This document shows positions 1 to 14,828 of a DNA stretch of 15,029 bases, piece after piece (position 1 is the stretch's first letter; each line of letters opens with the position of its first letter). Origin of the DNA: a virus (taxonomy: Duplodnaviria; Heunggongvirae; Uroviricota; Caudoviricetes); IMG/VR virus record IMGVR_UViG_2565956714_000007, positions 1 through 15,029 of that record; one strand, written 5' to 3'. Below the pieces are notes generated by a model. It was not told where the DNA came from and did not search any database. It worked only from the letters and a program-made list of their open reading frames with translations. The position numbers and the translations under genes were made by a program.

Positions 1-519
1 CTAAATGGATAATTGCATGTCAAGGCTTTTAACAGCAACATGCTTAACTTTCTCAACACGTTTACGCATTTTGAAAGCATTTTGCATTGGCTGGTACAAA
101 ACAAATAACGACGCTTTCAGGATGTCGTCAATTTCGTTTCTACAGGTTGCCAGTGAAGGTTTTCTCCATCCCTCGCCACCACGTCCACACATCTTGCGTG
201 GCTTTGCAGTCGCGTGATAGTAGGATGCAATTGCTCGCTTAGATGAACCATGAGCGTAGTAGCTGAGGAGGATGCCAAAGGCTTTCTTGTCAATGCACAT
301 GACGGAATCGACGACCTGAGAAATCAACATTCCATCATCATCATTGCACATTGGCCTTGTCATAACTCTTCCCGGCTCTACGCTCTCCATGAACTTCGCT
401 ATTACGCTGCTCATACGCTTTTCCAGACGACCTGAATAAACCCATGCGCCCCACAGTTCAAGCCAGCCATTCAGCCACTCATGATGTTCTTTGGTGAGGT
501 TTAGTTCTCTTATGCCCAC
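1..519 (-). CDS. Q: Late-gene antiterminator Q, phage 21/QuuD-like family (172 aa)
   Basis: Complete ORF with stop at the window edge. Motifs LELWGAW and RPMCNDDD...YYAHG resemble the Q21/QuuD-type antiterminator family. Position is the last gene of the nin-phosphatase-Q series on the early rightward strand. Start overlaps the stop of the upstream phosphatase gene. Confidence 0.75.
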
Positions 520-1181
520 GCGCCTTCTCCCTGTACCTGAATCAATGTGAGATTTCCGCAGAACACTGCCCCAGTATCGATATACATCTGGTTGGCAAAT
601 TTGAGTGGTTTCACTGCTGGCGTATGACCAAAGATAAACGTGTCCGCGCCTTTAATTTCTTTAACGATCCCGTCTTGTGAGTTGCTGATTCGTTCGCGGT
701 TCCAGATTACCTGCTGATGATCAACTGGCTTTCCAAATTCGTATTCGTCACAAGGATAATCGGCGTGGCAGATGACATATTTTTTACCTTTGCTCACCAG
801 TTCGATGATTAACGGAAGTTCTTCTGCTTTATGGGCAAGAGCTTTAGCCAGAATTTCTTTGTCGTAATCGAGATTAAAGAACCAGCCACCGCCATTAAGC
901 AGCCAGTGATTAACGTTTCCACGCTCTGATAAGCCATCAATCATCATTTGCTCATGGTTTCCACGTACAGCTCTGAACCAGGGGAATGTGATTAATTCCA
1001 GGCATTCAACGTTCTCTGCACCACGATCAACCAAATCGCCCACCGAGATAAGCAGGTCTTTTTTGTTGTCGAATCCAATCGTATCCAGTTTGTTCATCAG
1101 GTTCGTGTAGCATCCGTGCTGATCGCCAACTACCCAAATATTTCGGTATTTGCTGCCATCAATTCTTTCGTAGATATTCAT
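510..1181 (-). CDS. Ser/Thr protein phosphatase, lambda PPase (orf221/NinI)-like, calcineurin-type metallophosphoesterase (223 aa)
   Basis: Metallophosphatase motifs in order: VVGDQHG, GDLVDRG, GNHE, and GHT near the C-terminus. RBS GAGG upstream of the ATG. ATGA start/stop overlap with ninG. Sits between ninG and Q as in lambda. Confidence 0.9.
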
Positions 1182-1789
1182 GCAGCCTCACTTCTGCTGT
1201 TTCGCAGTTTTTTAAGTTTCTGTTGATACTCCGCCTTGATGGTCCTGCACTCTTCGACAGTCCAGCGATGGCGGTTATGGTTTGATTCGATTTCGTCTAC
1301 TGCTTCCTGCCCGATGCGGTTAATCAGTTCGACGCGATACGGAACGAGATTTCCGCTTTTGTGCTGGTTGCACACCACGCATTGCTTGTGAATATTGCGT
1401 TCATCAAATCGGAGTTGAGGCGCCGCAGCAGTTGTCCGGTAATGCCCGGCATCCCACTGAGCAGACGTGAGCGTTCCGCACGAGATACATGGTAAGTCGC
1501 GGTCTCTTTCTCTGATGAAGGCGTTTACGGCTTGTTGGGCTTGTTTAATCCAGTAACTGCGGGGCTTTAAGGCGAGTTTTCGAATCTTAAGTTTATCTTT
1601 CTGTTTCTGCTCCTCTCGTCGTCGTTTCTTCTCTGCTGCCTTTTCCGCTTTTTCGCGTTCTTTGCTTCGTCGTTCGAGTGCTATCTTGGTTCCACACTCT
1701 GGAGAGCACCACCACTGATTGGCGAATGCAGGGTGAAACCATTCCCGACATTCATCGTTTTTACATCGTCTTCGCGCTGGTTTAGCCAT
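1178..1789 (-). CDS. ninG: NinG (Rap) recombination protein (203 aa)
   Basis: Cys-rich N-terminus ([10 protein letters not shown]...WWCSPECG), basic Lys/Glu-rich stretch and C-terminal C..C/H motifs typical of lambda NinG; same length class as lambda NinG (204 aa). Position between ninF and the phosphatase. Confidence 0.85.
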
Positions 1790-1952
1790 CGTCTTCTTCC
1801 TCGTGCATCGAGCTATTCGGATCGCTCATCAGTTCTGCGCAGCAGTGCTCACACACGTGAACTTCCAGCACATGCAGCTTCTGACCGCAGTTAGCGCACG
1901 TTAAAGCTCGCTCGACACTTCCTTGTTCGTAACTTCGATTTTGGTCAATCAC
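1782..1952 (-). CDS. ninF: NinF-like small zinc-binding protein (56 aa, GTG start)
   Basis: Hand translation of the minus strand gives [56 protein letters not shown], close to lambda NinF as I recall it. Absent from the ORF track because it is under 60 aa. GTG start overlaps the ninE stop (GTGA) and the stop overlaps the ninG start. Confidence 0.7.
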
Positions 1953-2131
1953 CTTGTTTTCCTCGCACGTTCTCTAAGCCACCGGATATCCCACAGGTGA
2001 GCCGTGTAGTTGAAGGTTTTTACGTCAGATTCTTTTGGGATTGGCTTGCGTTTATTTCTGGAGCGCTTCGTTGGAAGGTATTTGCAGTTTTCGCAGATGA
2101 TGTCGGTGATACTTCGTCGCTGTCGTCTCAT
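1949..2131 (-). CDS. ninE: NinE-like protein (60 aa from an internal Met of the 80-aa track ORF)
   Basis: [60 protein letters not shown]. Starting at this Met gives a 60-aa product with an ATGA overlap onto the ninB stop; the longer N-terminal extension would overlap ninB heavily. Confidence 0.65.
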
Positions 2132-2568
2132 GCCGCCCTGTCTCCCCATCGCGCTTTCCACTCCAGAGCCAGTCGCGCTTCGTCTGACCACTTAACGCCA
2201 CGCTCTGTACCGAATGCCTGTATAAGCTCTAATAGCTCCGCAAATTCGCTTACACGCATCCTGCTGGTTGACTGGCCTATTACCACAAAGCCATTCCCGG
2301 CAAGGTTAGGAACAACGTCCTGCTGCTTTAATGCTGCTGTAAAAACGCACTTCCAGCTTTCTGCATCCAGCCAGCGACCATGCCATTCAACCTGACGAGA
2401 GACGTCACCAAGGCAAGCCCAAAGCTTTCGATTCTGGTCTAAGCTGCGGTTGCGTTCCTGAATGGTTACTACGATTGGTTTGGTTGGGTCTGGAATGATT
2501 TGCTGTACTGCGTGAATAGCGTTCTGCTGATGGATGTGGCTTCTTAGTTCAAACGTTAGTTTCCTCAT
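2128..2568 (-). CDS. ninB: NinB (Orf-family recombination mediator, 146 aa)
   Basis: Length identical to lambda NinB (orf146). RBS GGAG 8 nt upstream of the ATG. Followed directly by ninE/ninF/ninG; ninC and ninD are absent. Confidence 0.85.
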
Positions 2569-2785
2569 GGGATGAACTCCAGTTTGCGATGTTAAATTCC
2601 CATTTAATTACCTTTGCATACCCAATTTTGAACCCATCAATACCTATCCACCGATTGCCACTCCAATAAGCTGTACCACTTTGCTTGAAATGATGTGGAT
2701 GCCTAGATTGAGTGGTCACAGTTACAGGTAAATATGGCTTCGGGTATTCCCCATTCCCTGGATAACCAGATTTAATTTTGCTCAT
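2549..2785 (-). CDS. Hypothetical protein (78 aa), AT-rich accessory gene
   Basis: ORF with RBS GAGAGGG before the ATG and an ATGA overlap with the upstream 108-aa gene. Visibly more AT-rich than the flanking nin genes. No recognisable motifs. Confidence 0.5.
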   Translation of the reverse strand: MSKIKSGYPGNGEYPKPYLPVTVTTQSRHPHHFKQSGTAYWSGNRWIGIDGFKIGYAKVIKWEFNIANWSSSHEETNV

Positions 2786-3108
2786 TGATACCCTCTCTCA
2801 CTTAATCGCGCCCACGCTTCGTTAAACTCTTCTCGGGTTGCGCCGGATTTTCTTTCTTCAAACATCATGCATTCGCTGATGTCTCCCCATGACTTTGGTC
2901 GCTTTTCAGCGAACAGATCATCCCATTCGAATACCCAGCGTCCTGATTTTCGGTAGTGGTAAATGGTCAGCCATGTTGTGCTGTTCGCTGGATACCCATA
3001 GAGAACTTCGACTTTTTGATCACGGTCTTTATGCTTTTTCAGCAGGATAAAGCCAGCAACCAGCGAAGCTCCGGCAAGAATGATGATTGGAATTTGCCAG
3101 TCAGCCAC
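2782..3108 (-). CDS. Hypothetical membrane-anchored protein (108 aa, GTG start)
   Basis: N-terminal hydrophobic helix (IPIIILAGASLVAGFILL) followed by a charged soluble domain. RBS GGGAG/AGGGAAG upstream of the GTG. Occupies the ninA position between ren and ninB. Confidence 0.5.
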   Translation of the reverse strand: MADWQIPIIILAGASLVAGFILLKKHKDRDQKVEVLYGYPANSTTWLTIYHYRKSGRWVFEWDDLFAEKRPKSWGDISECMMFEERKSGATREEFNEAWARLSERGYQ

Positions 3109-3122
3109 ACTTCCCTCTCCCC

Positions 3123-3155
3123 CAAATAAAAAGGCCTGCGATTACCAGCAGGCCT
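3123..3155 (-). terminator. Intrinsic terminator-like hairpin downstream of ren (minus-strand sense)
   Basis: 8-bp perfect stem AGGCCTGC/GCAGGCCT (3132-3139 / 3148-3155) with an 8-nt loop, followed on the minus-strand transcript by TTTTTATTT. Confidence 0.6.
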
Positions 3156-3180
3156 GTTATTAGCTCAGTGATGTAGATGG

Positions 3181-3471
3181 TCATTGCCTTACCTCCATAA
3201 GCGCCCTATTAATAAACGCCGTCATTGGATTTGCACATCCCCACCCCGTACCATCTGGATTTCTTTTAATTGGCTCCTTCTTCACTTTGCGTTTTGCATA
3301 AATAACCGTCTTCCACTTACGCTCAACAACACTCAAATGTCCTTGTTTCACCATATGCCTTGCTGCTTGAGCGATTCTGTTATTTGGTATTCCGGTGATC
3401 AGTGCTAATTCATGTGGGGAGAATTGTTCATGAGTTTTCAGATATTCCAGGATGATTTCTTTTCCAGTCAC
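3181..3471 (-). CDS. ren: Ren-like protein (96 aa)
   Basis: Same length and MTGKE start as lambda Ren, with scattered similarity to my recollection of the lambda sequence. ATGA overlap with the upstream DnaC-like gene. Lies between the replication genes and the nin region. Confidence 0.65.
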   Translation of the reverse strand: MTGKEIILEYLKTHEQFSPHELALITGIPNNRIAQAARHMVKQGHLSVVERKWKTVIYAKRKVKKEPIKRNPDGTGWGCANPMTAFINRALMEVRQ

Positions 3472-4313
3472 GATCTGCTCCTGTAACTATCCCATGTAAA
3501 CGCAAGAGTGCACCCGCCGCCATCATTCATCCTGTCAATAACACGCTCACCAATGAATGCAGACAGTTCATCTTTGCTCTGGTTGCTAATCAGGATTGTT
3601 GGCTTCATGCGCTCGTAGCGGGTGTTGATGATTTCGAACATGATCATCTTTTCCGCCTCGCTTCCAAACTGCACACCAACCTCATCGATAATTAGCAGGT
3701 CAGGTTTAGTGAACTGTCGGATCACTTCATCCTCTGTGCGGGTGGAGTTTTTCGACCATGTTGATTTATATTCTCTGGCAATTTTCAGCGCCGTTGTGAA
3801 AATAGCTGAGCTTTGATGTTCCGTAATTGCGTGCCGGGCGATAGCCAGTGCAAGATGATTCTTTCCAGTACCAGGCTTTCCACACATAACCAGCCCACCG
3901 CCTTTCTGTAACCTCTCAGGCCATTTGCTGGCGTATGCCTGACACACCCTGAGCACTCTCTTTGCATCGTCGTTGACTGGCTCGTAGTTCTGTAGTGTGC
4001 AACCCTTGAATCGTTCAGGAATATCAAGATTATTCAACAGAAACTCGACATTGCGCTTACGTGATTCCTCGTCGATTTTAATCTTCTCTGCCTGTAGCCG
4101 AATAAGCTCATCTCTCATGCATTCCGGGCATTCGCTAGGTCTTGAGGCAAACTTAATTGGCCCAGTCGAGTAACGGTTACGCTGCTCAAACTCACCATGT
4201 TTTTCACAGATGCCAGTGCCAATTTCTACAGATGTATGCTCGATAGCAATTGGCGGAGAACTCAATTCTGCAAGTTTTTTCTCCAGTTGGGAGATCTTTT
4301 CATCCAGCGTCAT
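3468..4313 (-). CDS. DnaC-like helicase loader / IstB-type AAA+ ATPase (replication protein P functional analogue)
   Basis: Walker A GKPGTGKNHLA, Walker B LLIIDEVG and a downstream arginine region typical of DnaC/IstB. Start placed at the second ATG (MTLDEK...), which has GGAG 6 nt upstream and sits 2 nt after the O stop; the track ORF extends to 4331. Confidence 0.85.
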   Translation of the reverse strand: MTLDEKISQLEKKLAELSSPPIAIEHTSVEIGTGICEKHGEFEQRNRYSTGPIKFASRPSECPECMRDELIRLQAEKIKIDEESRKRNVEFLLNNLDIPERFKGCTLQNYEPVNDDAKRVLRVCQAYASKWPERLQKGGGLVMCGKPGTGKNHLALAIARHAITEHQSSAIFTTALKIAREYKSTWSKNSTRTEDEVIRQFTKPDLLIIDEVGVQFGSEAEKMIMFEIINTRYERMKPTILISNQSKDELSAFIGERVIDRMNDGGGCTLAFTWDSYRSRS

Positions 4314-4315
4314 GT

Positions 4316-5158
4316 TCACTCCTGCGCCCATGAAGGCATTTCAGTTTGTCCGTAATCTTTGGTGGCAAAGTTTTCCTGCATAGCTCGATGCTGCGGCCTC
4401 GGTTGAGATTTCCCCTTTGGAGTCTTGGGCTCAAAAATCCCCTGCCAACCACTGGCGATGCTCTGGTTTATAATTTCTTCAGGTGTATATCCCTTCTCCA
4501 GACTTCTGCTTAGAACGTTGATAGCCTGAGTGACACTTTGCTTAGACTTGATCGACTTACCTATCTCCTTGCGATAGGTAACCCACGACAACCATGTTTC
4601 TGCTGATAACCAATCAGGCAACTCTGTTTCTAGCGGGTCGAACTTCTGAGAAACTTTTTTGGGGGATATAGGGGGTTTATTAATATTTTCTTTTGTCTTT
4701 AAAGAATGTCTTTTGTGTGTCTCTAACTTCGAGACATTGAGTGTCTCTAATTTGGGGACATTTTTTGTCTCTAACTTCGAGACAAAGTTGCTAACTTGGA
4801 GACACTTGCTGAATTGCCACGCAGATACCTCACTGTTTACACCGATTTGATTTCCATCCATAAACAGGCAATTCATTGAAATCAGTTCTTTTTTAGCCTT
4901 GTTAACATTCTGCCTTGACAGTCCTGTTAACTGAGCAATTTGCTCATCGGCTATTCGATCTGTTTTCTTATTGAATCCATATGTTTTCCGGACGTAGGCC
5001 AGCATAACTTTCAACTGGCGAGCGGTTAAATCGGCACTTGCGATAGCTTCCAGCAGCTCGTTAGCGAATCTGGTGTAACCATCATCGATATCAGCCACTC
5101 TTCGCTCCTGTTCAACAGGTTCACTCTTCGGCAGGTAAAATACTTCAGCAAGGCTCAT
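4316..5158 (-). CDS. Replication initiator, lambda O-like, with ori iterons inside the coding sequence
   Basis: N-terminal region resembles the phage O N-terminal DNA-binding domain. The central part of the protein (VSNFVSKLETKNVPKLETLNVSKLET) is encoded by the DNA iterons. Start placed at an internal Met (MSLAEV...) with RBS GGAGG; the track ORF extends to 5191 and would overlap the upstream gene by 47 bp. Confidence 0.8.
   Translation of the reverse strand: MSLAEVFYLPKSEPVEQERRVADIDDGYTRFANELLEAIASADLTARQLKVMLAYVRKTYGFNKKTDRIADEQIAQLTGLSRQNVNKAKKELISMNCLFMDGNQIGVNSEVSAWQFSKCLQVSNFVSKLETKNVPKLETLNVSKLETHKRHSLKTKENINKPPISPKKVSQKFDPLETELPDWLSAETWLSWVTYRKEIGKSIKSKQSVTQAINVLSRSLEKGYTPEEIINQSIASGWQGIFEPKTPKGKSQPRPQHRAMQENFATKDYGQTEMPSWAQE
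4718..4804. repeat. Origin of replication: four ~19-bp iterons at ~24-bp spacing, followed by an AT-rich segment (4676-4716)
   Basis: tgtctctaacttcgagaca (4718-4736), tgtctctaatttggggaca (4742-4760), tgtctctaacttcgagaca (4766-4784) and a degenerate copy gttgctaacttggagaca (4787-4804). Each is an inverted repeat TGTCTC...GAGACA. Architecture matches lambda ori inside O. Confidence 0.8.
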
Positions 5159-5789
5159 TTCCAACCTCCGCATCAAAGCATTGGGCTTCAAGAGACTTAA
5201 CCATCACCACACTGCCATCTGTATTAATAACTATCGATGAGTTATATTTGCTTATCAGTTGCTTCGCGTAATCAATTCCGGCGCGAATAAGGAAATTTTT
5301 CACCGCAGGAAGATGACCAACTACACTACCCAGACCTTGCTCTATAAGCTCCTCATTAAGATCAAGCTCATTTTCATGGCGAAAAGAAATGAATGAGTCG
5401 TAAATTGCGTATTCTGCCGTCTCGCCATTTCTTTCAGGGCCAACCAGCGCCCTTATTTCATTTAGAGATTCAGAAAGATCATTATCTTCAAGCTTGAAAA
5501 ACTCTCGATTATCACTAAGCCTCTCTTTTGCAAAGGCTTTATGAATGAGTTTTTCATCTGATGCGGGATTATTTGAATGAAAGGCTGCTATCACCTTAAA
5601 TGGCTTAGGAACGCCAGTAGAGGCTGAAATTTCTTTAGCCCTAACTTCTGGTGAATGCTTAGTCATCCCAATCTTATAAATTCCTGGCATGCACTCATTC
5701 GAAAGCACATAAACAAAGCCATTTGATTTAAAATCATCTGGCACCTTCATGCTCTTCAGAACCTGGAATTTGTCATTTTCGTATGTCAT
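5145..5789 (-). CDS. GIY-YIG-like (T5orf172-type) domain protein, 214 aa; accessory gene inserted between cII and the O-like gene
   Basis: N-terminal GFVYVL...PGIYKIGMT...R..E....P...IH..F...R...REFF pattern matches the T5orf172/GIY-YIG-like nuclease fold; C-terminal ~110 aa unassigned. Strong RBS AGGAG 6 nt before the ATG. Visibly AT-rich relative to cII and O. Confidence 0.7.
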   Translation of the reverse strand: MTYENDKFQVLKSMKVPDDFKSNGFVYVLSNECMPGIYKIGMTKHSPEVRAKEISASTGVPKPFKVIAAFHSNNPASDEKLIHKAFAKERLSDNREFFKLEDNDLSESLNEIRALVGPERNGETAEYAIYDSFISFRHENELDLNEELIEQGLGSVVGHLPAVKNFLIRAGIDYAKQLISKYNSSIVINTDGSVVMVKSLEAQCFDAEVGNEPC

Positions 5790-5823
5790 AATTACTCCTG
5801 TGGATTGATCCAGTCTTTCTACA

Positions 5824-6105
5824 TCAGGCCTCGAAGAATTCGCCGTTCTTCGGGGCTTTTTCTTTTGTCAGGTAATTGGCAAGCCGCTTAGTCAGCTCAG
5901 CCATTTCATCGTCTTCGATTCCGTATTCCAGAACAGCCAGCATCATGCTTACCTGCGAGAAGAAACCATTCTTCCATCGGCTTACCTGATATTCAGGAAC
6001 CCCCATTGCTCGAGCGAATGTCTTCTGCCCCATCAGTGCCAGTTTGTTCAGCAAGGCTGACTCGATGCGAGCCGCTTTCTTGCTTTTAGTTGCAATAGTA
6101 CCCAT
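5824..6105 (-). CDS. cII: CII transcriptional activator (93 aa)
   Basis: Strong similarity to lambda CII (RIESALLNK...SRWK...MLLAVLEYG...DDEMA). RBS AAGGA upstream. Immediately downstream of nutR and cro. Confidence 0.85.
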   Translation of the reverse strand: MGTIATKSKKAARIESALLNKLALMGQKTFARAMGVPEYQVSRWKNGFFSQVSMMLAVLEYGIEDDEMAELTKRLANYLTKEKAPKNGEFFEA

Positions 6106-6112
6106 AGATAAT
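6080..6112 (+). promoter_or_regulatory. Candidate PRE-like CII-activated promoter (TTGC-N6-TTGC box plus -10 GATAAT), antisense to cII/cro and directed toward cI
   Basis: TTGC (6080-6083), ttttag, TTGC (6090-6093) on the plus strand within the first codons of cII, exactly where lambda PRE sits; GATAAT at 6107-6112 is about 17 bp beyond the -35 position. Confidence 0.55.
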
Positions 6113-6181
6113 TTCCTTAATGATTAGATAGAGTTGGCTTCGCAAAGAAACGCAAAACCATAGAGATTTGTTTCTGGTAAT

Positions 6182-6213
6182 GCCCTTTTTCAGGGCGGGG
6201 ATGTGTAAGAGCG
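6182..6213 (-). promoter_or_regulatory. nutR (boxA + boxB) N-utilisation site
   Basis: Minus-strand boxA CGCTCTTAC (6205-6213) followed by boxB hairpin GCCCTGAAAAAGGGC (6182-6196), matching lambda nutR as I recall it; between cro and cII. Confidence 0.8.
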
Positions 6214-6221
6214 TTAATAAC

Positions 6222-6452
6222 TTAAGCGGCCATTAATTCAGGCCAGATGCTTTCCCAATCAACCGGATGAAGGTCTTTGCGAGTCACTTCACCATTGCTG
6301 AACTTCTCAATCAGAACACAAAGTGCTGCGCCCAATTCATGATTACGGCTAAGTGCTTTCCTCAAATAGCCGATAGAAGTTCCGCACTTGGTGGCAAATT
6401 CTCTCTGCTCTTCCAGTGAAAGGGAGTTCAGATACAAGCGGAGTTCTTCCAT
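6222..6452 (-). CDS. cro: Cro-like HTH repressor (76 aa)
   Basis: First gene of the PR operon, divergent from cI. HTH-like segment QREFATKCGTSIGYLRKAL. RBS GGGAAGGAG upstream of the ATG. Confidence 0.7.
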   Translation of the reverse strand: MEELRLYLNSLSLEEQREFATKCGTSIGYLRKALSRNHELGAALCVLIEKFSNGEVTRKDLHPVDWESIWPELMAA

Positions 6453-6484
6453 TTGCTATCTCCTTCCCGTTGTTGAATAAGATG

Positions 6485-6554
6485 AGTTTACCTGTAGGTA
6501 AAAAGCAAATCAATACCCATAGGTTATTTACCGGCAGGTAATCAAAGATAGAAT
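6485..6554. promoter_or_regulatory. OR region: divergent PR (toward cro) and PRM (toward cI) with repressor operators
   Basis: 12-bp operators of form TACCT-NN-AGGTA: TACCTGTAGGTA (6489-6500) and TACCGGCAGGTA (6529-6540), with a degenerate palindrome between (6514-6526). PR on minus strand: -35 TTGATT (6508-6513), 17-bp spacer, -10 TAAACT (6485-6490). PRM on plus strand: -10 TAGAAT (6549-6554) placed so the transcript would start at or near the cI ATG; no SD before cI, suggesting a leaderless mRNA as in lambda. Confidence 0.65.
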
Positions 6555-6560
6555 TAAATC

Positions 6561-7247
6561 ATGGATAAATACGAACAAAGACGACTAAGGCTGATAGAGA
6601 TAAGAGACCGATTCTGTAATGGAAAGGCCTCAGAGTTGGCTCGTCGAATAGAAAGGGAACCATCATACGTTTCCAGAATGCTGTATCCGGAAGGAAAAAG
6701 CGGAAAAAAACGCATTGCTGACGATATGATGGAACTAATTGAAAAATCTTTTAATCTCCCACGCGGATGGATGGACATGCTTGCAGATGGTAAAGCTGGA
6801 GCTACGGACCATCTTGAGTTTGCGGGTAACGTTCGTGCGGGTTTTGTTCCGGTAATTGGTGAAGCCGTTTTGGGAGTTGATGGCTCAGTGGATATGATTG
6901 AATTCAGATCCGGTTGGTTAAGCATCTACAGCGGCGATAAAGATGCTTACGGTCTGAAGGTTAAGGGTGACAGCATGTGGCCAAGGATTCAGTCAGGAGA
7001 ATATGTTGTTATTGAACCAAATACGCCAGTACATCCAGGTGATGAAGTCTTTGTAAGGACCAAAGACGGTCACAACATGATAAAGATCATGAACAAAACA
7101 AGAGACGGTGATTATCAGTTTAGTAGCATAAACAGTGATCACCGCCCAATCACTCTTCCTGTTGAAGAAGTTGATAAAATGCATTTTGTTTCAGCTATTG
7201 TGAAACACACCAGGTACGTAGACCAGGACGATCTGCCAAAAGTTTGA
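6561..7247 (+). CDS. cI: CI repressor (HTH N-terminal domain plus LexA/S24-type autocleavage domain), 228 aa
   Basis: C-terminal S24 peptidase-like region (GDSMWP... with a downstream Lys). Divergent from cro across an operator region. No SD upstream. Confidence 0.9.
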   Translation: MDKYEQRRLRLIEIRDRFCNGKASELARRIEREPSYVSRMLYPEGKSGKKRIADDMMELIEKSFNLPRGWMDMLADGKAGATDHLEFAGNVRAGFVPVIGEAVLGVDGSVDMIEFRSGWLSIYSGDKDAYGLKVKGDSMWPRIQSGEYVVIEPNTPVHPGDEVFVRTKDGHNMIKIMNKTRDGDYQFSSINSDHRPITLPVEEVDKMHFVSAIVKHTRYVDQDDLPKV

Positions 7248-7261
7248 GGATAAAGCAGCAA

Positions 7262-7558
7262 ATGTTTATACCCGGCATAGTAGTCGCTGTTGTAATCATC
7301 TGCTTCATATGGGCAAAGTTATCTCCTGTAAGCTCTAAGCATACAGCTGAACTCATGAGGAAGAAGAATCTTATACATGAGGCAGAATCGATAATTAAAA
7401 AGTTCAAAGGCATGTCATACGACGACATGTCATCAGAGCAGATTGCTATGTATAAATGCGCCATTGAGCGCCTTGACTACTTAAACGGACTCAAACCCAA
7501 ACACACCCCAGTAGAATCAAAATTGCCGCAATGGCCAAGCAATCCAAATAGCTTCTGA
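7262..7558 (+). CDS. Small membrane protein co-transcribed with cI (98 aa from ATG 7262; track ORF begins at TTG 7244)
   Basis: N-terminal TM helix (FIPGIVVAVVIICFIW) then a charged soluble domain. RBS GAGGA ~11 nt before the ATG. Lies between the cI stop and the immunity terminator, the lambda rexAB position. AT-rich. Confidence 0.55.
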   Translation: MFIPGIVVAVVIICFIWAKLSPVSSKHTAELMRKKNLIHEAESIIKKFKGMSYDDMSSEQIAMYKCAIERLDYLNGLKPKHTPVESKLPQWPSNPNSF

Positions 7559-7569
7559 CATCTCCTTTC

Positions 7570-7592
7570 AGCCCGCAAAGCGGGCTTTTTTA
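7570..7592 (+). terminator. Rho-independent terminator ending the cI operon
   Basis: Stem AGCCCGC/GCGGGCT with loop AAA, followed by TTTTTTAT. Confidence 0.8.
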
Positions 7593-7655
7593 TATCAATC
7601 CAAAAAATTAATTACCTGAAAATTCAAGCAGGTAAACTCTCACATCAATTTTATT

Positions 7656-7696
7656 TACCTACAGGTATAGACATGGGTTTTACCTGTAGGTATATT
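7656..7696. promoter_or_regulatory. OL operators and PL promoter
   Basis: Operators TACCTACAGGTA (7656-7667) and TACCTGTAGGTA (7681-7692), centres 25 bp apart, same family as the OR sites. PL candidate: -35 TAGACA (7668-7673), 17-bp spacer, -10 TATATT (7691-7696). Transcript start ATCAGCAGGACGCACTGACC matches the lambda pL leader from memory. Confidence 0.65.
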
Positions 7697-7736
7697 TTAA
7701 GCCATCAGCAGGACGCACTGACCACCATGAAGGTGA

Positions 7737-7767
7737 CGCTCTTAAAAATTAAGCCCTGAAGAAGGGC
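7737..7767 (+). promoter_or_regulatory. nutL (boxA + boxB)
   Basis: boxA CGCTCTTAA (7737-7745) and boxB hairpin GCCCTGAAGAAGGGC (7753-7767), matching lambda nutL as I recall it. Confidence 0.85.
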
Positions 7768-8035
7768 AGCATTCAAAGCAGAAGGCTTTGGGGTGTGGTG
7801 AAGCCAGCTAGTCACTGGCAAGTGCTTACCTACTGTTGAGCGGTGAAGCGCTCCCAATGCTAGCAATAGCGTGGACGAGATGGGGAGCCGCGGGCGATAA
7901 GGCCGCCATAACGCGCACGTTGTCGCATGGAAAAATCGCTGGGGTGCCGGTTATACCCCTCCGAATGAGACTCAACAAGCTGGAGCTAGACTACCAGCCA
8001 CCACACCACCAAAGCTAACTGACAGGAGAATCCAG

Positions 8036-8368
8036 ATGGATGCACAAACACGCCGCCGCGAACGTCGCGCAGAGAAACAGGCTCAATGGAAAGCAGCAAA
8101 TCCCCTGTTGGTTGGGGTAAGCGCAAAACCAGTTAACCGCCCTATTCTCTCGCTGAATCGCAAACCGAAATCACGAGTAGAAAGCGCACTGAATCCGATA
8201 GACCTTACAGTGCTGGCTGAATACCACGAACAGATTGAAAGCAACCTGCAACGTATTGAACGCAAGAATCAGCGCACATGGTACAGCAAGCCACGCAGTG
8301 AAATGGGTGTGACATGCTCAGGCCGCCAGAAGCGACGCGGAAAATCAATTCCAGCTTATTACGATTGA
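8036..8368 (+). CDS. N: Antitermination protein N (110 aa)
   Basis: MDAQTRRRERRAEKQAQWKAANPLLVGV... is essentially the lambda N arginine-rich motif and body; only the C-terminal tail differs. RBS AGGAGAA upstream. Downstream of PL/nutL. Confidence 0.9.
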   Translation: MDAQTRRRERRAEKQAQWKAANPLLVGVSAKPVNRPILSLNRKPKSRVESALNPIDLTVLAEYHEQIESNLQRIERKNQRTWYSKPRSEMGVTCSGRQKRRGKSIPAYYD

Positions 8369-8376
8369 GGTGAGCC

Positions 8377-8541
8377 ATGCTCAAGAAAGTCAAACGCCGA
8401 CTTTACAAAGAAGGTAGATATTCATGCCAATTGCCAAAATGCGACACAACAAAATGGAGTGTCGATGATTGGTGTAACTGGATAGATAGATACGGAACTT
8501 GGTGGGAACGTATTTATTTTCGCGGCAAACCACTTATTTGA
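8377..8541 (+). CDS. Hypothetical small Cys/Trp-rich protein (54 aa)
   Basis: Hand-translated ORF MLKKVKRRLYKEGRYSCQLPKCDTTKWSVDDWCNWIDRYGTWWERIYFRGKPLI with RBS GAGGTG 5 nt upstream. Below the ORF-track length cutoff. Confidence 0.4.
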   Translation: MLKKVKRRLYKEGRYSCQLPKCDTTKWSVDDWCNWIDRYGTWWERIYFRGKPLI

Positions 8542-8549
8542 GGTGAGAT

Positions 8550-8801
8550 ATGGAATTTCATGAAAGTGCGATTTGTGATTTTCGCGCTAACGCAAATTCA
8601 GTAAAACCACAGCCAATTGCAGTTCTTTTTAAAACAATGGGTGCGTGGGCTGTTTTATGCTTCGCCGCTGATGACACTGACGCAAGAATGGCAATAGGCC
8701 AAGAGATGGAGATGGACCCGACAAACGATGAATTCATAATTTATGGCGCTCCATCTAATTACTTACTTGATACCTGCAACATTTACAACAAGGCTGCCTG
8801 A
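8550..8801 (+). CDS. Hypothetical protein (83 aa) in the pL operon
   Basis: ORF with RBS GAGGTGAGAT before the ATG, the same RBS context as the preceding small ORF. No recognisable motifs. Confidence 0.5.
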   Translation: MEFHESAICDFRANANSVKPQPIAVLFKTMGAWAVLCFAADDTDARMAIGQEMEMDPTNDEFIIYGAPSNYLLDTCNIYNKAA

Positions 8802-8860
8802 TGGTGGCCTTTATTTTTTAGCCGTAAATAATTTCATGCTTATTACAATCAAGGTGATAT

Positions 8861-9226
8861 ATGGAAGAACAAGCAAACAAGATTCTCGTAGAACTACTGC
8901 AAAAAGCCAGCAATGGAATAGACGCGGCTGTTTCATTTAGCCAGGCACAGATTCCTGATGTCATCCATCAGCTTTTGATGTGGCACGCCGTATCATCAGC
9001 TGGAATTCAGGCTATCTGTGTATTGGTGATTATAGCGTGTGTTTATCTGATGATTTTTGCATGGAATAAAGGAGATGATGCAGATATTGTTCTTTTATCA
9101 CTACTTGTTACATCAGGAATAGCGATTACTTCTATTGTTGTTTTCTTCAATTATTTCGACTGGCTGAAAATTTGGCTGGCCCCAAAACTTTACCTTATCG
9201 AATATGCAGCATCATTGGTTAAGTAA
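8861..9226 (+). CDS. Two-TM small membrane protein (121 aa) in the pL operon
   Basis: Two hydrophobic helices (AGIQAICVLVIIACVYLMIFAW and IVLLSLLVTSGIAITSIVVFFNYF). RBS AAGGTG before the ATG. Lies in the N-to-cIII interval where lambda carries sieB/ral-type accessory genes. Confidence 0.6.
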   Translation: MEEQANKILVELLQKASNGIDAAVSFSQAQIPDVIHQLLMWHAVSSAGIQAICVLVIIACVYLMIFAWNKGDDADIVLLSLLVTSGIAITSIVVFFNYFDWLKIWLAPKLYLIEYAASLVK

Positions 9227-9375
9227 TTTCAGGCCGCATAATCGTCCTTTATTTTTGGCATAAACAACAGAATAAACACTGCACTGTGTATTCATTCCAA
9301 CGAGTGAATACACGGAGCAATGTCGCTCGTAACTAAACAGGAGCCGACTTGTTCTGATTATTGGAAATCTTCTTT

Positions 9376-9399
9376 GCCCTCCAGTGTGAGGGCCTTTTT
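9376..9399 (+). terminator. Intrinsic terminator-like hairpin upstream of cIII (tL-type)
   Basis: GCCCTC (9376-9381), loop cagtgt, GAGGGC (9388-9393), then CTTTTTA. Expected to be read through under N antitermination. Confidence 0.55.
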
Positions 9400-9465
9400 A
9401 TATGCATACCAATAACGCTTCACTCGAGGCGTTTTCGTTATGCAATCAAATATAAGGAGTTACCC

Positions 9466-9600
9466 ATGATGCACTTTCAGCTCGCGGGTAGCGGCGTCAT
9501 GTCCGCTTTCTACCCGCACGAATCTGAATTATCACGCCGAGTTAAACAATTAATTAGAGCAGCAAAGAAACAACTGGAGGCGTTATGCGCAATGAAATAG
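9466..9600 (+). CDS. cIII: CIII-like protein (44 aa; inhibitor of FtsH-mediated CII degradation)
   Basis: MMHFQLAGSGVMSAFYPHESELSRRVKQLIRAAKKQLEAL resembles the lambda CIII amphipathic core (ESLLERITRKLR...) as I recall it. RBS AAGGAG upstream. Start placed at an internal Met of the 79-aa track ORF. Confidence 0.6.
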   Translation: MMHFQLAGSGVMSAFYPHESELSRRVKQLIRAAKKQLEALCAMK

Positions 9601-9737
9601 CCATTAATCACCAGATGCTTCGTGCGGCACAAAACAAAGCAGTAATAGCCAGATTTATTGGTGATTCAAAAATGTGGCTTGAAGCAAATAAAGCGATGAA
9701 ATCAGCTATCAACCTTCCGTGGTATCGCAGGAAATGA
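9585..9737 (+). CDS. Kil-position small protein (50 aa)
   Basis: Hand-translated ORF MRNEIAINHQMLRAAQNKAVIARFIGDSKMWLEANKAMKSAINLPWYRRK with RBS GGAGG upstream. Overlaps the cIII 3' end in another frame, as kil does in lambda. Assignment is by position and size only. Confidence 0.4.
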   Translation: MRNEIAINHQMLRAAQNKAVIARFIGDSKMWLEANKAMKSAINLPWYRRK

Positions 9738-9904
9738 GTTTTACAGATAACTGGTCAGACGAAGAATTCATTCGTCAGATGAAAGAATTAATCGGTAACG
9801 AAGGAGATATTCATGTCACTTGCAACCACAGTGAAGGAGAGCAAGTTACAGAGACGCATGTACACGCAGCAGGCGTTAATGTATCGCCAGAAGGGAGATC
9901 GTGA
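9734..9904 (+). CDS. Hypothetical acidic small protein (56 aa)
   Basis: ATG overlaps the preceding stop (ATGA). Start taken at the internal Met (MSFTDN...) of the 61-aa track ORF. No recognisable motifs. Confidence 0.4.
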   Translation: MSFTDNWSDEEFIRQMKELIGNEGDIHVTCNHSEGEQVTETHVHAAGVNVSPEGRS

Positions 9905-9991
9905 AGGTGTTCGCGTATTTTTAAATGCGGCAAAGACTGAAGTATTAAATCAGCGTTATTTCCTTGGGCCATGTCCATTCTGAGGTGAATT

Positions 9992-10699
9992 ATGGATTTG
10001 AACAAATTCGATGAGCCATTCAGCCCTGAAGATATCGAATGGCGAATACAGCAAAGCGGTAAAACACGCGATGGCAAGGTGTGGGCTATGGTGCTGGCTT
10101 ATGTCACGAACCGGGCAATCATGAAGCGCCTGGACGATGTTTGCGGCAAAGCAGGATGGCGCAATGAATACCGCGATATTCCCAACAACGGCGGAGTTGA
10201 ATGCGGCATATCAATAAAGATTGATTCCGAATGGGTAACCAAATGGGATGCTGCTGAAAACACGCAGGTAGAAGCCGTCAAAGGCGGTCGTTCCGGTGCA
10301 ATGAAGCGCGCTGCCGTTCAGTGGGGAATCGGTCGGTATCTGTATAACCTTGAGGAAGGTTTTGCACAAACATCTCTCGATAAAAAGCAGGGATGGCACA
10401 GGGCAAAACTCAAGGATGGAACAGGATTTTACTGGCTCCCTCCATCGCTGCCGGGATGGGCAATCCCAGCATCAGATAACAAACCATCACCAGAAAATAC
10501 CAACCAGAAATCTCCATCGGTTGACTGCGAACAAATCCTGAAAGACTTCAGCGATTATGCGTCAACAGAAACTGACAAGAAAAAACTCATCGAGCGTTAT
10601 CAGCGTGACTGGCAATTAATGGCTGGCAACGAGGAGGCGCAGGCTAAATGCGTTCAGGTAATGAACATCAGAGTTAACGAACTAAAACAGGCGGCATAA
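9992..10699 (+). CDS. Rad52/Rad22-family single-strand annealing protein (235 aa)
   Basis: Collinear Rad52-type pattern: ...GW...(20)...G.ECGISI...AAEN...GGRSGAMKRAAVQWGIGRYLYNL. RBS GAGGTGA upstream. Directly followed by ssb. Confidence 0.75.
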   Translation: MDLNKFDEPFSPEDIEWRIQQSGKTRDGKVWAMVLAYVTNRAIMKRLDDVCGKAGWRNEYRDIPNNGGVECGISIKIDSEWVTKWDAAENTQVEAVKGGRSGAMKRAAVQWGIGRYLYNLEEGFAQTSLDKKQGWHRAKLKDGTGFYWLPPSLPGWAIPASDNKPSPENTNQKSPSVDCEQILKDFSDYASTETDKKKLIERYQRDWQLMAGNEEAQAKCVQVMNIRVNELKQAA

Positions 10700-11173
10700 A
10701 TGGCAAGCAGAGGCGTAAATAAGGTGATCATTATTGGTCGCCTTGGGCATGATCCAGAAATCAGATATTCACCATCAGGAACGGCATTTGCAAACCTTAC
10801 CGTTGCTACGTCAGAACAATGGCGTGATAAGAAAACTGGAGAGCAAAAGGAGCAGACGGAGTGGCACCGCGTGGTAATGAGCGGGAAACTGGCAGAAATT
10901 GCCAGCGAATATCTGCGAAAAGGCTCTGAGGTTTATCTTGAAGGCAAATTGCGGACAAGAAAATGGCAGGATCAAAGCGGACAGGATCGGTTCACTACCG
11001 AAGTCATCGTGGGCGTTGGTGGAACCATGCAAATGCTTGGTGGCAAGCAAGGAGGCAATGAACAGTCTTCACCTCAGCGAAATAATGGTCAGCAACAAAG
11101 ACAGCAACCTCAGCAGCAGGGAAATCACAGCGAACCACCTATAAACTTCGACGATTCGGATATTCCGTTCTAG
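10700..11173 (+). CDS. ssb: Single-stranded DNA-binding protein (157 aa)
   Basis: OB-fold N-terminal region ([17 protein letters not shown]...WHRVV), Gly/Gln-rich linker and acidic C-terminal tip DDSDIPF. Confidence 0.9.
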
Positions 11174-11182
11174 GAGCTGAAT

Positions 11183-11662
11183 ATGAAAATCTGCTCAAGA
11201 TGCCATCAACCGAAGGAAGAAAGGGACTTTCAAATCAGAAGAGCATCCAGAGATGGATTAACTGCCGCTTGCCGGGCTTGCCTGGCTGAATATGACAAAG
11301 AGCGCGCGGGATTGCCACATCGAGTATCAGCAAGGAGAGAATATCAATCATCGGAACGCGGCAGAGAACGGTGTAACGCAGCCAAAAAGCGGTTCATTCA
11401 GAGCAACCCATGGAAAAGAAAAGCCCACATCATCGTGGGTAATTTTTTGCGCGACGGTAAGCTAATCCGACCACCACAATGTGAGTGCTGCGGATCAGAA
11501 TGTAAACCACAGGCGCACCACTGCGACTACAGCAAACCAACCGATGTGATGTGGCTCTGCAAGTCATGTCATGTCGAGTGGCACAAACATAACAAACCTA
11601 TCTACCCAGACGAGGAGCCAGTAACTCTCCCCTTCCCTCGTCACGCTATTCACGCAATTTAA
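11183..11662 (+). CDS. HNH endonuclease-like zinc-binding protein (159 aa)
   Basis: N-terminal CxxC...CxxC zinc ribbon. C-terminal HNH-type motif CECCGSECKPQAHHCDYSKP...WLCKSCHVEWHKH. RBS AGGAG upstream. Confidence 0.7.
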   Translation: MKICSRCHQPKEERDFQIRRASRDGLTAACRACLAEYDKERAGLPHRVSARREYQSSERGRERCNAAKKRFIQSNPWKRKAHIIVGNFLRDGKLIRPPQCECCGSECKPQAHHCDYSKPTDVMWLCKSCHVEWHKHNKPIYPDEEPVTLPFPRHAIHAI

Positions 11663-11670
11663 GGACTTAC

Positions 11671-12219
11671 ATGAATCACTTGATGGTTGACCTTGAAACA
11701 ATGGGCAACGGGCCATACGCGCCAGTTATTTCTATTGGGGCGGTATTCTTTGACCCGAATACCGGAGAAACAGGAGAAGAGTTCTCGGTAAATATCTCGC
11801 TTGAATCATCAATGCGATATCGAGCGCGTCCTGACGCTTCAACGATTTTATGGTGGCTGGAACAGAGTGAAGAAGCCAGGAAATCGCTAACCAGCAACAC
11901 TCAGGAGCTTTCAACGGCTCTTTCATGGTTATCTGAATTCATCATAAAGAACGCTAACCACAAATTCGTTCAGGTTTGGGGGAATGGAGCATCATTTGAC
12001 TGCGTTATTCTCCGCAACAGTTATTCGCTGACAGGGCAGCCAGTTCCGTGGCAGTGGTGGAATGACCGCGACGTAAGAACAATCGTCGAACTTGGGAAGG
12101 CAATAGGATTCGACCCTAAGCGAGATATGCCATTCAAAGGAACTCGCCACAACGCTCTTGATGATGCCATTCACCAAGCCAAATACGTTTCAGCGATCTG
12201 GAAAAAGTTAGCTAAATAA
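11671..12219 (+). CDS. DnaQ-like DEDDh 3'-5' exonuclease (182 aa)
   Basis: Exo I motif MVDLETMG, Exo II motif GNGASFDCVIL and Exo III motif HNALDDAIHQAKY, in order. RBS AAGGA upstream. Confidence 0.8.
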   Translation: MNHLMVDLETMGNGPYAPVISIGAVFFDPNTGETGEEFSVNISLESSMRYRARPDASTILWWLEQSEEARKSLTSNTQELSTALSWLSEFIIKNANHKFVQVWGNGASFDCVILRNSYSLTGQPVPWQWWNDRDVRTIVELGKAIGFDPKRDMPFKGTRHNALDDAIHQAKYVSAIWKKLAK

Positions 12220-12235
12220 TCAACAGGAGAAAACC

Positions 12236-12532
12236 ATGCCAGCGCCTCTGTATGGTGCGGATGACCCGCGCCGCTGTTCCGGCAATTCCGTATCGGAGGT
12301 GCTGGATAAATTCAGAAAAAACTACGACCTGATAATGTCTCTACCGCAGGAAACGAAAGAGGAAAAGGAATTTCGCCACTGTATATGGCTTGCAGAGAAA
12401 GAAGAACGCGAGCGAATTTACCAGACATCAATCCGACCATTCCGCAAAGCCACATATACCCACTTCCCTGAATATATCGACCCGCGCCTGCGTAATTACC
12501 GCTCACGCTATGGCGCTATCAGTAATGACTGA
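12236..12532 (+). CDS. Hypothetical protein (98 aa)
   Basis: ORF with RBS AGGAGA before the ATG. No recognisable motifs. Confidence 0.5.
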
Positions 12533-12542
12533 GGAATTTACC

Positions 12543-12710
12543 ATGAGAGGACTTGCATACAATCCCGGCATTCTTCCGGCAGAAATGATTATTCGCCAAC
12601 GCGTAAAGCCAATGCCATCGAGAGAGGAATTGCTTAAGAGAAAGAGTTTCGGTTCTGTTAATGACAACAAATATCTGAATGCGATGTTGCGCAAAGGAGG
12701 CAACCGGTGA
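12543..12710 (+). CDS. Hypothetical protein (55 aa; internal start of the 106-aa track ORF)
   Basis: ATG preceded by RBS GAGGAA. The upstream part of the track ORF overlaps the 98-aa gene in another frame and lacks an RBS. Confidence 0.4.
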
Positions 12711-12840
12711 CTGGACATGCAGCGATCCTCGACATGTGCTGTGGCAGTCGCATGTTCTGGTTAGATAAGAATGACGAACGGGCGAGATAAGCGATCGGTT
12801 AAGTGCTATAGTAATGCGCTTTTGTATTTATGGAGTGAAT

Positions 12841-13539
12841 ATGAAAAATATCCTACTGGCATCATTGTTAGTGGCATCGCCGGGTGCATTTGCAGCCAGC
12901 TTTGACTGCCAAAAGGCTTCGACAGCAATCGAACATAAAATCTGCGATAACGAACGTCTGTCAAAATTAGACGAACAGCTTAGCTCTGCCTATTCTAGTG
13001 CCCTCAAAGAAAACCCAGAGAACGCAGACACCATAAAAATGGTTCAACGTCAGTGGGTAAATATGCGTGGAAAACTCACTGATAATAAGGCTCTGGAGCT
13101 GGCTTATCTTATCCAAATTAATGGCCTCAAAGGTTTGGGGAGTTCAGTCAGCGTAACAGCGGCCAATGAGATACCCACGTCGACGCAGAAACATTCTGAA
13201 GAGCAGGAAGAAACAAGTAAGGCAGAAGTTAAGTCGGTCAAGAACGGCAATAAGCTAACCTTAGAGTCATTCCGAGCTAAATATGTAGAAGTAGATGGTG
13301 AGTATTACAGCACGACATCCATTCCTAGAGGCAGTTCGTTCTTGTTCACTTGCGCCAGTCGTATTGCTGATGACCAAGTGAATGTTTGGAAGAAACATGC
13401 AGCCAAAGAGGGCAAAATCGACCTATTCTTTGAGGTTGAGAATCACTTACACACTGCTATGTTGAACGCCAATTTCCAGAAGTTGAATTCAGACCCTGCC
13501 AAAAGAGGTATTTGTAATCTGATTAACGCAGTGCCGTAA
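12841..13539 (+). CDS. Secreted DUF1311 (LprI N-terminal-like) domain protein, 232 aa with signal peptide
   Basis: Signal peptide MKNILLASLLVASPGAFA. DUF1311-like motif FDCQKASTAIEHKICDNERLSKLDEQLSSAY...QRQWV. RBS GGAGTG before the ATG. Start taken at M10 of the track ORF. Followed by a hairpin. Confidence 0.7.
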   Translation: MKNILLASLLVASPGAFAASFDCQKASTAIEHKICDNERLSKLDEQLSSAYSSALKENPENADTIKMVQRQWVNMRGKLTDNKALELAYLIQINGLKGLGSSVSVTAANEIPTSTQKHSEEQEETSKAEVKSVKNGNKLTLESFRAKYVEVDGEYYSTTSIPRGSSFLFTCASRIADDQVNVWKKHAAKEGKIDLFFEVENHLHTAMLNANFQKLNSDPAKRGICNLINAVP

Positions 13540-13549
13540 GTAAATTTAG

Positions 13550-13580
13550 GGCCACAGTTGTGGCCTTAAATATTTTTTCA
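13550..13580 (+). terminator. Terminator-like hairpin after the secreted-protein gene
   Basis: GGCCAC (13550-13555), loop AGTT, GTGGCC (13560-13565); the T-run TATTTTTT begins ~9 nt later, so this is a weaker terminator. Confidence 0.4.
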
Positions 13581-13745
13581 GCCTTTTCTTATTTGTAATA
13601 AGCAGTACTTAGTAGTGCTTATAAAACAGAATAAAAAACATATGACTTTGGCGATTACCCAGTAAAGATATTCGAAATAAATGTAAATATCGGCAATGAA
13701 TAACAATCCTCGCACTCGCGGGGATTTCTTTTATATGGGGATAAT

Positions 13746-14546: not shown

Positions 14547-14565
14547 TGCGGATTTCTTTTATCTG

Positions 14566-14590
14566 AACTCGCTACGGCGAGTTTTGTTTT
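14566..14590 (+). terminator. Rho-independent terminator after the 266-aa gene
   Basis: AACTCGC (14566-14572), loop TACG, GCGAGTT (14577-14583), followed by TTTTGTTTT. Confidence 0.7.
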
Positions 14591-14603
14591 ATGGAGATGA
14601 TAA

Positions 14604-14771: not shown

Positions 14772-14784
14772 TGGCGGTTTTTTA
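14764..14784 (+). terminator. Rho-independent terminator upstream of xis
   Basis: CCGCC/GGCGG stem with loop TGAT, followed by TTTTTTATT. Confidence 0.7.
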
Positions 14785-14828
14785 TTGCCTGATTTGCAGG
14801 TTCGATTCCCTATTCGGAGATAGCACTC

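Follow-up and report, generated by a model that had tools for sequence, protein, structure and literature searches.

A family of single-pass membrane proteins in the cI-downstream slot of lambdoid prophages and the sieA slot of P22-like prophages

RexAB of phage lambda consists of a cytoplasmic sensor, RexA, and a channel protein with four transmembrane (TM) helices, RexB, and small envelope proteins of resident phages that block DNA entry include the HK97 gp15/YebO-like proteins, Imm and Sp of T4, Sim of P1, and the Cor/Llp lipoproteins. Here we compare these systems, together with BstA and SieA, to orf98, a gene for a 98-residue protein directly after the cI repressor gene in a stretch of 15,029 nucleotides of tailed-phage DNA (IMG/VR record IMGVR_UViG_2565956714_000007, positions 1 to 15,029; the window). 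BstA, a soluble protein of ~305 residues, is found at sites of phage replication and comes with a self-immunity element, aba (PMC8585504). Its gene lies downstream of cI, presumably sharing the cI promoter (Owen et al. 2021, PMC8585504), and the interval between cI and N, home of rexAB in lambda, is described as a mosaic hotspot (PMC8585504). SieA, at 162-164 residues or longer, has 3-4 TM helices and the motif FxRYPxEAxxFNK and comes in types A, B, and C (Leavitt et al. 2024, PMC10883804). It blocks DNA injection by P22-like phages, with escape mutations in gp16/gp20, and its gene, present in 22 of 66 P22-like phages, always lies between genes 16 and 9 (PMC10883804). Leavitt et al. found SieA to be active in both Escherichia and Salmonella.

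We are highly confident that orf98 is a real gene, that it belongs to a family occupying two genomic slots, and that a single TM helix is the architecture of that family. By analogy with the known occupants of those slots, we tentatively read orf98 as a superinfection-exclusion protein, unrelated to SieA, that would act at the inner membrane on the delivery of incoming DNA.

A membrane-protein gene in the cI operon

The window corresponds to the early region of a lambdoid prophage, in inverted orientation relative to the lambda map. Its block from cro through cI and orf98 to OL matches the immunity region of coliphage mEp043 at 98.8% nucleotide identity, and the counterpart of orf98 there has the same gene position and is annotated as mEp043_049, a hypothetical protein. 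The operon comprises the following features.

6080-6093, + strand: candidate PRE, a cII-box-like TTGC-N6-TTGC within the cII start, reading toward cI and orf98 (pattern match)
6488-6502 and 6527-6541: OR operator palindromes
6527-6554, + strand: PRM-like promoter, TTTACC-16-TAGAAT, overlapping an OR operator (consensus scan; putative promoter function)
6561-7247, + strand: cI repressor, 228 residues, with an S24 peptidase C-terminal domain (Pfam PF00717, 1.4e-17; phrog_4, transcriptional repressor)
7246-7250, + strand: GAGGA, resembling a Shine-Dalgarno (SD) sequence, sharing bases with the cI stop codon, 11 nt before the orf98 ATG (read from the sequence)
7262-7558, + strand: orf98, 98-residue single-pass membrane protein, member of phrog_10450 and orthologue of mEp043_049
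7265-7321, + strand: N-terminal TM helix of orf98, codons 2-20 (FIPGIVVAVVIICFIWAKL), Kyte-Doolittle mean 2.53
7570-7592, + strand: intrinsic terminator of the immunity operon, AGCCCGC-AAA-GCGGGCT followed by T6 (stem 7570-7586)

The original prediction, made from the letters of the window, had described a 98-residue open reading frame (ORF) with one N-terminal TM helix, and this description holds: against the 2.53 averaged by residues 2-20, the second-best hydrophobic segment of orf98 scores 0.05. All 14 aligned family members likewise have one TM segment, with the next-best 19-residue window reaching at most 0.46 on the same scale. No lysine or arginine precedes the orf98 helix and four fall within the next 15 residues, a pattern kept throughout the family (0-2 residues ahead of the helix with no lysine or arginine among them in 14 of 14 members, and 2-6 in the following 15). 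Because of the positive-inside rule, the C-terminal domain is predicted to be cytoplasmic, and orf98 would thus lie in the inner membrane N-out/C-in, with a basic domain of ~75 residues in the cytoplasm. An AlphaFold2 model built with the family alignment (predicted local distance difference test score, pLDDT, of 79) has helices at residues 5-47 and 58-76, of which the first extends out of the membrane and the second packs back on it, followed by an extended tail that bears a W-P pair. From its N-terminus, the protein is predicted to have 0-2 residues outside the membrane, the anchor helix, a helical hairpin of ~75 residues, and a tail with the conserved W-P pair. A lipoprotein or cleaved signal peptide was ruled out, as there is neither a basic n-region nor a family-conserved lipobox or AXA site. 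A metal site formed by H27 and C66 was also rejected; the two residues are invariant in alignments A2 (14 sequences) and A3 (13 sequences), yet the most remote member, L153, lacks both.

Several lines of evidence indicate that orf98 is a genuine coding sequence maintained by selection. We assembled 33 close loci (mEp043, three E. coli chromosomes, 28 IMG/VR contigs, and one Escherichia sp. contig) that are colinear with the cro-to-PL block at 97-100% identity. The orf98 frame is intact in all 33, free of indels and stops, and the lone 1-nt gap in the alignment, in L027, falls outside the gene; the codon at 7262 is exclusively ATG or GTG. Of 21 variable sites in orf98, 12 are at third codon positions. 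The pooled ratio of synonymous to non-synonymous changes is 10:11 in the orf98 frame, whereas the shifted frames give 2:18 and 5:15, and pairwise ratios of non-synonymous to synonymous rates (dN/dS) against the most divergent haplotypes are 0.13-0.20 for orf98 and 0.10-0.12 for cI. An antisense ORF of 89 residues (7195-7464) was rejected, as coding-type substitutions and protein homology are found in the + frame only.

These data bear on whether orf98 might instead be non-functional, either an ORF that arose by chance or the remains of a decaying gene in the cI-OL spacer. Two observations do speak for that possibility. The orf98 gene is carried by 52 of 5426 complete E. coli genomes, and PGAP/RefSeq calls no feature over it in any of the 30 listed of these 52 carriers (for example NZ_CP073981.1, 583497-583793), whereas the paralogue beside gene 16, discussed below, is annotated as hypothetical in 20 of 20 listed of its 57 carrier genomes. 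The SD is also weak and distant, its 11-nt spacing being long. However, purifying selection is confined to the orf98 frame, the 33 loci lack indels and stops, protein homologues at 28-45% identity are known from Escherichia, Salmonella, and Enterobacter, with two syntenic contexts, and the paralogous group has a strong conserved SD. Because orf98 is conserved, the spurious-ORF explanation is contradicted and effectively refuted, and we regard it as extremely improbable.

The position of orf98 points to expression with the repressor. It lies on the cI strand, upstream of OL/PL, and sequence scans found no terminator between cI and orf98 and one directly after it. That terminator begins 11 nt beyond the orf98 stop, folds at -12.6 kcal/mol (z = -2.3), and is the sole terminator-like site on the plus strand from PRM to PL; the homologue in the diverged module L041 is likewise trailed by a GC hairpin and a T-run. 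The PRM-like -10 element (TAGAAT) ends 6 nt before the cI ATG, so that the cI transcript probably lacks a leader, as it does in lambda. The cII-box pattern behind the candidate PRE has three matches against 1.2 expected, so the count alone is not above chance, and the mEp043 annotation marks the same TTGC-N6-TTGC site as a putative cII binding site. We infer that orf98 is expressed in lysogens from PRM/PRE: it would be co-transcribed with cI from PRM, and also from PRE while lysogeny is established, and the transcript would terminate at 7570-7592. Translation would start from the ATG at 7262, probably through coupling or re-initiation aided by the distant GAGGA; the equivalents in L042 and L041 have GAGGA or GGGA 8 nt upstream of their starts.

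On these points the original prediction fared unevenly. Its placement of the gene inside the cI transcription unit and ahead of the immunity terminator is borne out by the scans above, as is its claim that the gene directly follows cI, with the ATG 14 nt past the cI stop codon (7245-7247). Its claim that the start region overlaps that stop does not hold for this ATG; the sole start choice that overlaps is an alternative in-frame TTG at 7244, which would yield 104 residues. It had also called the gene AT-rich, which is inaccurate in that the gene does not stand out in composition: GC content is 41.4% in orf98, 43.2% in cI, and 39-47% over the whole immunity region. Because the value lies within the range of the region, a horizontally acquired AT-rich island was ruled out for orf98.

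One family in two prophage slots

orf98 matches the phrog_10450 profile over its full length (residues 1-98 of a 98-position profile, E = 3.7e-54), and distant homologues, together with ORF14 of phage N7, match it at 1e-24 to 3e-52. PHROGs assigns phrog_10450 to the category of unknown function, and public sources name every family member 'hypothetical protein'. A word-index protein search with the single sequence returned only relatives above 90% identity, and a scan of genome contigs gave one close relative only. The family needed phmmer to be seen: an exhaustive search of 1.8 billion representatives recovered homologues of 97-114 residues at 33-43% identity. Homologues overall are 28-45% identical and have in common one N-terminal TM helix and a basic helical-hairpin domain. 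The trimmed 14-sequence alignment shares M1, I3, H27, K34, I38, E40, A41, M56, C66, A67, L71, W91, and P92, and the 13-sequence alignment has ten invariant positions.

Searches against described families and folds returned little. Pfam gave zero families at E <= 1 for orf98 and nothing usable for five homologues; for the same six proteins, NCBIfam gave noise only, far below cut-off, and PADLOC gave no match at E <= 1. The best hit of a sequence-profile search of the PDB was to designed helical filaments (E = 0.83), and Foldseek found no match at E <= 0.001 for the single-sequence model against BFVD or the alignment-built model against the PDB, with the best matches above that threshold being generic helical hairpins. 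A literature search on mEp043, the accession numbers, and the PHROG identifier found no functional study. The statement in the original prediction that the protein has no recognisable motifs thus stands for Pfam, NCBIfam, and PADLOC, and fails for PHROGs, where it is a full-length member of a family.

The first slot of this family is the one seen in the window. The nearest diverged relatives, P0006 and P0007, start 3-4 nt past the stop of a 231-residue S24 repressor in modules ordered cII-cro-cI-gene-(N), with the P0007 cluster belonging to the Enterobacter cloacae complex, and the IMG/VR contigs L077 and L079 have the same gene-after-cI arrangement. The after-cI slot is that of mEp043-type immunity modules of Escherichia and Enterobacter.

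The cI-downstream slot is a cargo site, as seen among 80 viral contigs with related cI. Where cI is at least 97% identical, a member of the family is present in every complete locus (one truncated contig was not assessable). At 83-85% cI identity, some contigs carry a family member and others an unrelated 133-residue single-TM protein, and at 78-83% the slot holds BstA (L082, 3350-4267, and L117, 3045-3965; PADLOC 7e-122 and 1e-117). Viral contigs with cI 53-85% identical have other cargo in the slot, including an SDH-type protease, an HTH-M78 (RmrA-like) protein, a ParA-like ATPase, and small unknown proteins. BstA in related cI alleles, and rexAB in the hotspot (PMC8585504), agree with the earlier claim that this position typically holds exclusion or abortive-infection genes. 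The 133-residue protein (L074 and L075, 3309-3710; cI 85%) has one TM segment near its N-terminus and a helical C-terminal part, with no Pfam or PADLOC match and no match to the orf98 family profile, and may be another candidate membrane cargo protein.

The second slot is that of sieA. All other homologues with readable context, bar P0009, reside in P22-like (Lederbergvirus) prophages. We examined 33 such loci (8 look-up loci and 25 IMG/VR loci), distinct from the 33 close orf98 loci, and phage N7 also places its gene there. In these loci the family gene lies between genes 16 and 9, whereas the window copy sits after cI. It is on the strand opposite to the ejection-protein genes 7-20-16, with its stop ~10 nt from the gene 16 stop, and downstream of Mnt/Arc-type repressor genes wherever that flank is covered; sieA of P22 has the same position. 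None of the 33 loci has a SieA homologue by tblastn, a SieA motif, or a multi-TM ORF, and a P22 control was positive on all three. With P0027, a member from this slot, as query, tblastn against all phage records matched N7, HZ41, and mEp043 only, with no match in P22 or other sieA-positive phages. Because SieA is absent from the 33 loci, and the family from sieA-positive phages, SieA and phrog_10450 are, by these searches and in the sample examined, alternative occupants of the slot.

Genes of the second slot have a conserved AAGGAGG 6-7 nt ahead of a GTG or ATG start. Sequence beyond this SD is unrelated between lineages, with the upstream flank mosaic up to the SD, and the family gene travels together with the 3' end of gene 16. 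The N7-type subfamily occurs in 57 of 5426 complete E. coli genomes. One 38-kb P22-like contig, IMGVR_UViG_2563366933_000009, carries both paralogues, a window-type copy after cI (L010/L055) and an N7-type copy abutting gene 16 (L148); the two are ~30% identical, and their presence in one contig argues against simple redundancy.

Outside both slots, the 114-residue homologue P0009 lies in L035 (a contig from Logan SRR10692002) beside genes for a P22-type gp7 and an injection translocase, with no gp16 match, and its other flank has type VI secretion system (T6SS) Hcp and Tlde1-domain genes. With these two flanks, L035 looks like the remnant of a prophage beside a T6SS effector island.

The other features of the window are as follows.

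3468-4331, - strand: IstB/DnaC-like loader
4316-5191, - strand: O replication protein
5145-5789, - strand: T5orf172/MUG113-domain gene, 214 residues (Pfam 2e-15 and 4e-16)
5824-6105, - strand: cII
6222-6452, - strand: cro
7612-7635, unstranded: palindrome TTACCTG-N10-CAGGTAA between the terminator and OL (read from the sequence)
7653-7667 and 7681-7695, + strand: OL operators (palindromes), the downstream boundary of the slot
7668-7696, + strand: PL, TAGACA-17-TATATT (consensus scan; putative PL in the mEp043 annotation)
8036-8368, + strand: lambda-type N, followed by recombination and accessory genes

The T5orf172 gene is inserted between cII and O, overlapping the O start, and the diverged module L041 likewise has a T5orf172 gene directly after cII. 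The palindrome at 7612-7635 has counterparts in L041 (~2765-2790) and L042 (~4310-4335), with the arms kept and the spacer variable across three otherwise diverged modules. Its arms look like operator half-sites (TACCTGTAGGTA), and either a distal operator or a hairpin is conceivable. A 121-residue ORF (8861-9226, + strand), which lies beyond N in the PL operon, apparently has two hydrophobic segments and is without a Pfam match; it appears to be another putative membrane protein in an early-operon accessory position.

Divergence and proposed function

Within lineages orf98 is under purifying selection, yet it is the fast-evolving part of an otherwise conserved immunity module. In comparisons of the window with the L041 or L042 modules, the small protein is 42% identical, cI 84%, and cro 90-92%, and DNA identity drops from ~0.75-0.85 in cI to 0.3-0.6 in the gene before returning to at least 0.73 at OL. 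In the P22-like loci compared (L034, L036, L037, L039, L043, L045, L046, and L153), identity of the small protein tracks that of the adjacent gp16, with a Spearman coefficient of 0.81 over ~5 lineages and non-independent pairs. This tracking shows long-term linkage, and may or may not show functional coupling too.

On balance, we lean slightly towards an anti-phage role of some kind for orf98. It is a good candidate exclusion protein because its relatives in P22-like phages hold the SieA slot, and it would then be a functional analogue, not a homologue, of P22 SieA. That it specifically blocks DNA entry is a more tentative suggestion. Its most plausible target would be the conduit formed by the gp16/gp20 ejection proteins of P22-like phages, such that the lysogen of a lambdoid siphovirus such as mEp043 would be protected against podoviruses; since mEp043, a siphovirus with a lambda tail, has cor as well, the copy after cI would be directed at other phage types. 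A fuller version of this proposal, which we think doubtful as a whole, is that phrog_10450, a family of minimal single-pass inner-membrane proteins with no relation to SieA, is a fourth occupant of the SieA slot and would block the gp16/gp20 conduit from the cytoplasmic face, that lambdoid immunity operons captured it such that siphovirus lysogens exclude podoviruses, and that alleles covarying with gp16 set its specificity. Specificity encoded by the allele would explain the two ~30%-identical paralogues found in one phage. The exclusion or abortive-infection interpretation in the original prediction is thus partly supported, strengthened circumstantially by position, the feature from which it reads function.

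A number of observations count against the proposed exclusion role. The functional argument draws wholly on position, and orf98 has no sequence or fold similarity to SieA, the PADLOC models, Pfam, NCBIfam, the PDB, or BFVD. It has one TM helix where SieA has 3-4, and its soluble domain is predicted to be cytoplasmic and would not meet periplasmic parts of the conduit. That domain could still meet membrane-inserted gp16, and the SieA motif is likewise predicted to be cytoplasmic. Simple consensus scans gave no dedicated promoter for the genes of the sieA slot, and the tracking of gp16 is explicable by plain physical linkage or by a role in the phage's own biology.

One alternative lies outside defence, in which orf98 would be a lysogenic-conversion factor acting on the host envelope or a membrane-tethered modulator of the lysis-lysogeny decision (for example through FtsH/HflKC or antirepressor control). 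The gene adjoins lysogeny regulators in both slots (cI in one, mnt/arc/ant in the other), its predicted basic cytoplasmic domain could bind a membrane-proximal host protein, and in P22-like phages it is stably linked to gp16 over deep divergence, unlike swapped cargo. However, the protein diverges far faster than cI and cro, and because of this disparity antagonistic co-evolution fits better than housekeeping regulation. The gene is also dispensable, as some cI alleles at 83-85% identity have it and others do not; it was mutually exclusive with sieA in the loci examined, and it occurs with unrelated virion types. We therefore consider an accessory role of this kind unlikely.

We find it more improbable that orf98 is a single-component abortive-infection effector, which would sense infection and depolarise or permeabilise the inner membrane in a RexB- or holin-like manner such that the lysogen dies first. 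The gene does share its position with rexAB and bstA, both abortive-infection systems, and a small membrane-anchored helical protein could oligomerise. Yet it has one TM helix where RexB has four, the slot holds a single ORF and leaves no RexA-like partner, and there is no Pfam or PADLOC match. Expression from PRM would be constitutive, with no visible antitoxin. The family's second home is moreover the sieA slot beside the ejection genes, and SieA blocks entry and is not abortive.

If orf98 does act in exclusion, a very small and tractable family would join the few proteins known to keep phage DNA out at the inner membrane, and a 98-residue, one-helix analogue of SieA with alleles that track gp16 could help to map the vulnerable part of the conduit. 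The cI-downstream slot and the sieA slot would then exchange the same cargo. Each subfamily occurs in ~1% of complete E. coli genomes, and defence censuses based on RefSeq miss the cI-linked one because it is unannotated in the 30 listed genomes. If it is not anti-phage, orf98 would still be a conserved prophage membrane protein of lysogens, with a new role.

Comparison with known systems

Among the systems considered, lambda RexA/RexB shares with orf98 the slot downstream of cI, within the PRM/PRE transcript and before the immunity terminator and OL/PL. RexAB takes two genes, whereas one ORF lies between the cI stop (7247) and the terminator (7570), and orf98 has a single TM helix, no homology to RexA or RexB, and no Pfam or PADLOC match. 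BstA resembles it in arrangement, as a single gene after cI on the repressor promoter, and within this cI family it replaces orf98 in alleles at 78-83% identity. However, orf98 is predicted to be membrane-anchored and does not match the BstA model that recognises the L082 occupant at 7e-122. The small membrane exclusion proteins (HK97 gp15/YebO-like, T4 Imm and Sp, P1 Sim, and Cor/Llp) differ in that orf98 is without a Pfam, PDB, or BFVD match, a conserved lipobox, or a signal-peptide n-region.

SieA of P22 and orf98 are alike in several respects. Both are inner-membrane proteins of prophages, by prediction in the case of orf98, and the distant homologues of orf98 sit exactly in the sieA position, convergent with gene 16 and on the mnt side of immI. 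Both are also highly diverse in sequence, and they were mutually exclusive in the loci examined. The differences are in the proteins themselves: orf98 has 98 residues, one TM helix, and no FxRYPxEAxxFNK motif, and an hhalign comparison of family alignment A1 with SieA found no homology (probability 0.3%). In addition, the window copy lies in the cI operon and not in a P22-like virion module.

In contrast, orf98 does not differ in sequence from the group formed by phrog_10450, mEp043_049, and ORF14 of phage N7, of which it is a full-length member. As a hypothetical protein this gene is already known to the databases. What is new is the link that these comparisons draw between the cI-downstream slot and the sieA slot, and a family that is by sequence distinct from and unrelated to SieA.

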